A stretch of DNA of 64,000 nt from Escherichia coli (GTDB lineage: Bacteria > Pseudomonadota > Gammaproteobacteria > Enterobacterales > Enterobacteriaceae). The stretch lies in NCBI RefSeq assembly GCF_002854065.1, contig NZ_CP024147.1; one strand, written 5' to 3'. A program made the translations under genes and the position numbers. Position 1 is the first letter of the stretch, and every line of letters begins with the position of its first letter. Shown piece by piece: positions 22,679 through 23,044 of this stretch. The notes below the pieces were generated by a model. That model made no database searches, was not told the origin of the DNA, and saw only the letters and a list, made by a program, of their open reading frames with translations.

Positions 22679-23044
22679 ATGATTGATGTCTTAGGGCCGG
22701 AGAAACGCAGACGGCGTACCACACAGGAAAAGATCGCAATTGTTCAGCAGAGCTTTGAACCGGGGATGACGGTCTCCCTCGTTGCCCGGCAACATGGTGT
22801 AGCAGCCAGCCAGTTATTTCTCTGGCGTAAGCAATACCAGGAAGGAAGTCTTACTGCTGTCGCCGCCGGAGAACAGGTTGTTCCTGCCTCTGAACTTGCT
22901 GCCGCCATGAAGCAGATTAAAGAACTCCAGCGCCTGCTCGGCAAGAAAACGATGGAAAATGAACTCCTCAAAGAAGCCGTTGAATATGGACGGGCAAAAA
23001 AGTGGATAGCGCACGCGCCCTTATTGCCCGGGGATGGGGAGTAA
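22679..23044 (+). CDS. insC: IS2 transposase OrfA (InsC), 121 aa, helix-turn-helix DNA-binding protein
   Basis: ATG at 22679 gives [26 protein letters not shown]...; track start 22634 is an upstream non-ATG codon. Confidence 0.93.

Follow-up and report, generated by a model that had tools for sequence, protein, structure and literature searches.

An intact IS2 copy in elfC with an in-phase A6G slippery site and the -1 frame arrangement of insC and insD

Insertion sequences of the IS3 family such as IS3 and IS150 use a -1 frameshift to join a DNA-binding OrfA to a DDE OrfB, and IS150 is cited for high-level frameshifting (in a reference given in PMC3219604). The best-studied A6G frameshift in the family is that of IS911. 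For IS2, an A6G window has been named as the frameshift site, with OrfA as the predominant product and OrfAB made at low frequency, and a mutation to A7G places orfA and orfB in one fused frame (PMC3219604); that paper, citing Hu et al. 1996, treats the production of OrfAB by frameshifting as known for IS2 generally. Among heptamers measured in E. coli, A_AA.A_AA.G ranks with the most shift-prone, and the same study reports background frameshifting of roughly 0.04-0.07% (PMC4066793). IS2 transposes by a copy-out/paste-in route with figure-of-eight and minicircle intermediates (PMC3219604, PMC3299598). Here, we examine an insertion element within a 64,000-nucleotide stretch of E. coli DNA (the window), for which a preliminary description had pointed to an AAAAAAG heptamer where insC and insD overlap. 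The element is IS2, an already known, textbook element whose sequence is indistinguishable from that of active copies.

The complete insertion sequence occupies 1331 bp at 22588-23918 on the + strand and lies between two copies of a 5-bp target-site duplication, CCATC, at 22583-22587 on the left and 23919-23923 on the right, both assigned from the flanks and by in-silico excision; 5 bp is the length of the target duplication made by IS2. The junctions read ...TTGCCATC|TAGACTGG on the left and ...AATCCA|CCATCAAAAG on the right. The left inverted repeat (IRL, 22588-22629, + strand) begins TAGACTGGCCCC and is identical to that of K-12 IS2A, while the right inverted repeat (IRR, 23878-23918, + strand) ends ...GGGGCAAATCCA (CA-3') and carries the IS2 IRR pattern, the inner boundary being approximate in both. 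An inverted-repeat pair was detected at 22597-22629 and 23878-23910, and the IRR pattern has a single exact match in the window, at 23893-23918. The published IRL of IS2 ends in TA rather than CA and carries a weak extended -10 promoter (PMC3219604). The repeats at this locus are imperfect and about 40 bp long, with IRR ending in CA-3' and IRL in TA, as is characteristic of the IS2 group. A search of the window for further IS2 sequence returned none besides 22588-23918.

The interrupted gene is elfC (ycbS), which encodes a fimbrial usher and is split into a 5' fragment at 22123-22587 and a 3' fragment at 23924-26059, both on the + strand and both assigned from the elfC/usher annotation of matching genomes, which place the gene downstream of the chaperone gene elfD, and by reconstruction. 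When IS2 and one CCATC were removed in silico (22123-22587 joined to 23924-26059), the result was a restored usher ORF of 866 aa, free of internal stops; as reconstructed, this is a clean, simple IS2 insertion that inactivates the elfC usher. The exact left junction between elfC and IS2 (22548-22627) occurs in none of 5,426 complete E. coli genomes, and strains 100416 and CUWW06, in which elfC is uninterrupted, match the flanks in the window at 100% identity. Other strains carry IS2 in the same gene. E. coli TW14425 has a copy in the opposite orientation, 1 bp away, with the target duplication GCCAT versus CCATC (L019, 1636-1645 and 2966-2975); strain PSS-04 has an IS2 variant of 97.5% identity about 120 bp further into elfC; and in strain 2017-03-3CC an IS2 lies about 530 bp further in. 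The gene appears to be a repeated IS2 target, and the insertions in these strains are independent.

All 1331 bp are 100% identical to IS2 at many unrelated sites on E. coli chromosomes and plasmids and on one Shigella plasmid, many of these copies being annotated as "IS3-like element IS2"; IS2-like sequence was found in 4,901 of the 5,426 complete E. coli genomes. Against the K-12 reference, IS2A (insC1/insD1, NC_000913.3 381260-382590), 1330 of the 1331 bases are the same, with the slippery site, the ORFs, and both ends unaltered. The sole difference is C for A at IS position 606 (window 23193), giving CCC versus CCA, both of which encode Pro64 of InsD. The check for point differences from functional IS2 copies, which the preliminary description had raised as the way its reading might fail, therefore yields zero relative to many copies elsewhere and one synonymous change relative to K-12 IS2A. 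The identity to copies spread over many replicons indicates a recently active sequence. A decayed copy was also encountered, on E. coli plasmid pPT62-106kb (L004, 94% identity, about 455-500); its A run is down to A5G, the sequence just past the run is rewritten, and a 4-nt deletion destroys the 5' arm of the hairpin considered below. That copy is annotated merely as an integrase-core fragment and provides a useful negative example.

The heptamer AAAAAAG lies at exactly 22996-23002 on the + strand. The upstream gene, insC (orfA/InsA; HTH DNA-binding regulator), spans 22679-23044 on the + strand, from ATG at 22679 to the stop codon at 23042-23044, and encodes 121 aa (13.5 kDa). In the insC frame the heptamer reads A_AAA_AAG, matching the X_XXY_YYZ phase, with AAA at 22997-22999 and AAG at 23000-23002. 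The downstream gene, insD (orfB; DDE catalytic domain), spans 23002-23907 on the same strand, from GTG at 23002-23004 to the stop at 23905-23907, and encodes 301 aa in a frame that is -1 relative to insC (22679 mod 3 = 2; 23002 mod 3 = 1). This frame is closed by TGA at 22981 and is open from 22984 to its stop, with GTG 23002 as the earliest start codon, so that both frames are open together over 22984-23044, between the -1-frame TGA at 22981 and the end of the insC stop at 23044. On the basis of sequence, phase, and ORF geometry, 22996-23002 (+ strand) is assigned as the slippery heptamer A_AAA_AAG, the site of -1 ribosomal frameshifting. The location given in the preliminary description, within the overlap of insC (frame 2) and insD (frame 1), agrees with both the coordinates modulo 3 and the phase. 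Its placement of the insD start "within" the heptamer needs amendment: the GTG at 23002-23004 is the start, whereas only its first base, G 23002, belongs to the heptamer.

Occurrences of AAAAAAG are frequent in the window, which contains 26 on both strands versus 14.8 ± 3.9 expected from dinucleotide shuffles (0 of 100 reached 26). We scored all 26 for frameshift ORF geometry, and the site at 22996 was the only one to display it: its 0-frame ORF runs for 121 codons upstream and ends 15 codons past the heptamer, and its -1 frame meets a stop 4 codons upstream and then stays open for 303 codons downstream. The excess of the motif is general across the window, and the other 25 sites lack this geometry. 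A bare heptamer thus means little, given 26 sites against 14.8 expected, but the geometry is unique, which indicates that the arrangement did not come about by chance.

To characterize the product, we modeled the slip in silico: 22679-23002 was translated in the insC frame, and reading was resumed at 23002. The predicted OrfAB is a protein of 409 aa and 46.4 kDa with the junction peptide ...EYGRAKKVDSAR..., in which GTG 23002, the annotated start of a free-standing InsD, becomes Val109. The predicted mass matches the 46 kDa reported for IS2 OrfAB (PMC3219604), and the PGAP annotation of an IS2 copy identical to that in the window gives one 409-aa CDS marked "programmed frameshift," the same length as the simulated fusion. 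Pfam matches in the fusion are HTH_Tnp_1 (residues 8-87), HTH_21, rve (232-335), and rve_3, of which insC accounts for HTH_Tnp_1 and insD for rve, rve_3, and HTH_21. The NCBIfam models "IS2 repressor TnpA" (238.8 bits versus a cut-off of 229), "IS2 transposase TnpB" (723.9 versus 597), and transpos_IS3 (279.5 versus 160) all score above their cut-offs. L266, R291, V301, D306, A341, E342, and E391 all fall at the numbering of the characterized IS2 transposase (PMC3219604), and the catalytic residues D306 and E342 are 35 residues apart, which is the DD(35)E spacing; from its position in the rve match, the first Asp of this motif is most likely D240. The assignment in the preliminary description to the IS3-family programmed -1 frameshift arrangement is well founded, since the in-phase A6G, the overlap, the full-length ORFs, the DDE residues, the ends, and the target duplication are all intact. 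Its further suggestion, that this copy could still make OrfAB, is upheld to the extent that every sequence determinant is intact, and nothing in the sequence speaks against an intact IS2 with its frameshift site.

A predicted 72-nt hairpin (23009-23080, + strand, MFE fold) follows the heptamer and is a candidate frameshift stimulator; fold prediction separates it from the heptamer by a 6-nt spacer, UGGAUA (23003-23008, + strand). Its 9-bp basal stem is entirely Watson-Crick and pairs GCGCACGCG (23009-23017) with CGCGUGCGC (23072-23080). The 100-nt fold of 22996-23095 has an MFE of -40.9 kcal/mol (z = -2.7), which was equaled by 2 of 200 shuffles. A 201-nt fold is less significant (z = -1.4), and because this wider fold is weaker we restrict the structural claim to the 72-nt hairpin. 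Of 1,157 overlapping 71-nt windows across the IS2 coding region, the two with the greatest stability begin at 23010 and 23009, within this hairpin, with about 0.47 kcal/mol/nt, close to the 0.452 ± 0.124 reported for the hairpins of 271 IS3-family members (PMC4066793). The same study gives rules for stimulators, namely a length of 17-140 nt, a start 4-10 nt past the motif, a stem that opens on a G-C pair followed by 3 or more others, and at least 7.6 kcal/mol to unfold. The IS2 hairpin agrees with all of them, having 72 nt, a 6-nt spacer, 9 consecutive Watson-Crick basal pairs, and about -34 kcal/mol. We found no experimental description of an IS2 hairpin in the IS2 and IS3-family literature examined, and IS2 is not named in the Atkins 2016 review. 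No Shine-Dalgarno (SD)-like upstream stimulator (GGAG, GAGG, AGGA, GGGG, or similar) is present in the 30 nt upstream of the heptamer, and an Rfam scan of 22400-24100 at E ≤ 10 returned chance-level matches only (snoRNAs, ApoB_5_CRE) and no frameshift-element family.

To examine the conservation of these signals, we collected by tblastn at least 15 IS2-group relatives from plasmids, with identities ranging from 96% down to about 65% among the matches listed and including ISEc27, ISEc36, and unnamed IS2-like elements of Klebsiella, Salmonella, and Enterobacter. The 9-bp basal stem occurs at the same 6-nt spacing in nearly all 15 of these relatives, while the interior of the hairpin changes; in the group at about 65% identity, a branched fold is built on the same basal stem. 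The slip motif itself varies. It is A7G, which contains the A6G heptamer, in ISEc27, ISEc36, and their Klebsiella kin, and A_AAA_AAA (A7) in three relatives at about 69-72% identity (L010, L011, and L013). The group at about 65% identity (L012 and L014-L017, from Klebsiella, Enterobacter, and E. coli plasmids) has no heptamer and reads UCG_CGA_AAA_UGG, with a slip site, CGA_AAA_U, of the tetramer type A_AAA; it keeps the 6-nt spacer and an identical 9-bp basal stem and is still annotated as a "programmed frameshift." The basal stem is thus better conserved than the slip motif among the IS2-group relatives, as this last group illustrates. One match, on the K. pneumoniae plasmid pKP9650-2 (L018), has lost 1 nt a few bases before its A6G; it is a single tblastn match over residues 1-396 at 67.7% identity, with IS2-like DNA around the slip site, and could be a mosaic, a naturally frame-fused copy, or a sequencing error.

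In the alignment of 14 distinct relatives, pairing in the basal stem extends to 98.4% of cells, a value that falls to 1-67% when the partner is slid by 1-3 columns. Seven of the nine basal pairs are invariant; one of the others changes from CG to UA, a compensatory change in the 81% group, and the other from CG to UG. Two relatives in this alignment are mismatched at the CG-to-UA pair, the change in the 81% group was probably a single event, and covariation lends the hairpin thin support. The 3' arm lies past the insC stop, where insD alone is encoded; synonymous positions in its Arg (CGU) and Ala (GCG) codons are invariant in all relatives, which argues for constraint at the RNA level; the 5' arm lies within the doubly coding overlap, which offers another possible cause of its conservation. 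Weighing the fold together with this pattern of conservation, we regard the proposal that the 72-nt hairpin located 6 nt past the heptamer serves as the frameshift stimulator of the IS2 group as evenly balanced. If the proposal is true, conservation of the signal within the IS2 subgroup would be strongest at the basal stem rather than at the slippery motif.

We propose, with high confidence, that the window contains an intact IS2 of the IS3 family in elfC that would produce OrfAB by a -1 slip at A_AAA_AAG, probably stimulated by the hairpin; published work on IS2 and the IS3 family is the basis for ascribing to this copy its frameshifting, its mobility, and a stimulatory role for its hairpin. 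Most ribosomes would stay in the insC frame and terminate at 23044, yielding the 13.5-kDa InsA regulator. A minority would slip at A_AAA_AAG, where the tRNA-Lys on AAA (22997-22999) and that on AAG (23000-23002) would both move back by one base and re-pair with AAA and AAA. Translation would resume at GTG 23002, read as Val, and continue through insD to give the 409-aa, 46-kDa OrfAB transposase, with an N-terminal HTH domain and a DDE catalytic core. The stable hairpin starting 6 nt past the heptamer probably raises the frequency of the slip.

The arrangement of the two genes also has to be weighed against other explanations. InsD might be made alone from GTG 23002, with the heptamer incidental: this GTG is the earliest start after the upstream stop and the annotated insD start in K-12, every relative examined has GUG or AUG as the equivalent -1-frame codon past the motif, and IS911 is described as making a separate OrfB from an unusual start codon at its frameshift site (according to the title of a reference cited in PMC3219604). 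The conservation of GUG or AUG, however, follows necessarily from the Lys-Trp codons of the 0 frame (AAR UGG) and so carries no weight as independent evidence for an InsD start; an SD-like sequence is absent upstream; and InsD alone would be without the N-terminal HTH_Tnp_1 domain. Moreover, independent initiation is compatible with the frameshift and is no substitute for it. We consider this explanation unlikely. Transcriptional slippage, in which RNA polymerase would add one A on the A6 run to give an A7G mRNA encoding OrfAB in a single frame, is considerably less probable still. An engineered A7G template yields the same 409-aa protein (PMC3219604), transcriptional slippage is documented for other IS3-family members (PMC6211511), and longer A runs occur at the same place in relatives, A7G in ISEc27 and ISEc36 and A7 in L010, L011, and L013. 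On the other hand, efficient slippage by the polymerase usually needs about nine or more A's, and a run of six is short. The exact phase of the heptamer also argues against it, and a conserved stable hairpin at 6-nt spacing matters to ribosomes and not to the polymerase. Relatives that have only CGAAAAT nevertheless retain the same ORF arrangement and hairpin, and in the published work on IS2, OrfAB is ascribed to ribosomal frameshifting (PMC3219604).

The copy in the window might instead be a dead relic, whose heptamer and ORFs are intact in appearance only; decayed IS2-like copies do exist, L004 with its A5G run and hairpin-arm deletion being one at 94% identity. This is the least credible of the alternatives, given that the copy shows no difference from widely dispersed ones, that its ORFs are full-length and its ends intact, and that its 5-bp target duplication is clean; at the level of sequence this reading is excluded.

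With ribosomal frameshifting in an intact element as the preferred reading, the appropriate annotation for this IS2 copy is a single frameshifted transposase gene, and the copy should be regarded as potentially mobile. In this strain the elfC usher is inactivated, and with it the Elf/Ycb fimbrial operon. An intact IS2 can drive more insertions and rearrangements, which is relevant to strain stability and is not new biology; the finding of an intact IS2 frameshift site is ordinary though correct and has little importance beyond annotation.

The locus can be placed among known systems. IS3, a member of another subgroup of the family, has a pseudoknot as its downstream stimulator, unlike IS2 (PMC4066793). 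IS911 shares with this element A_AAA_AAG in the orfA/orfB overlap, a structured stimulator a few nucleotides downstream, and the use of the OrfAB fusion as transposase and of OrfA as regulator. It differs in having its own upstream SD-like GGAG and a three-way junction, whereas IS2 is without an SD-like sequence and is predicted to form one long irregular hairpin; dnaX, like IS911, has an upstream SD-like stimulator of the kind absent upstream of the heptamer in the window. ISEc27, ISEc36, and the unnamed elements of Klebsiella, Salmonella, and Enterobacter share the ORF layout, the 6-nt spacer, and the 9-bp basal stem, and differ in nucleotide identity (65-81%), in the motif (A7G, A7, or CGAAAAT), and in the inner part of the hairpin. 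The closest system is K-12 IS2A, which has the same length (1331 bp), the same ends, the same ORFs, and A6G at IS positions 409-415, and which differs from the copy described here in its insertion site, yaiX versus elfC, and in carrying A rather than C at IS position 606.
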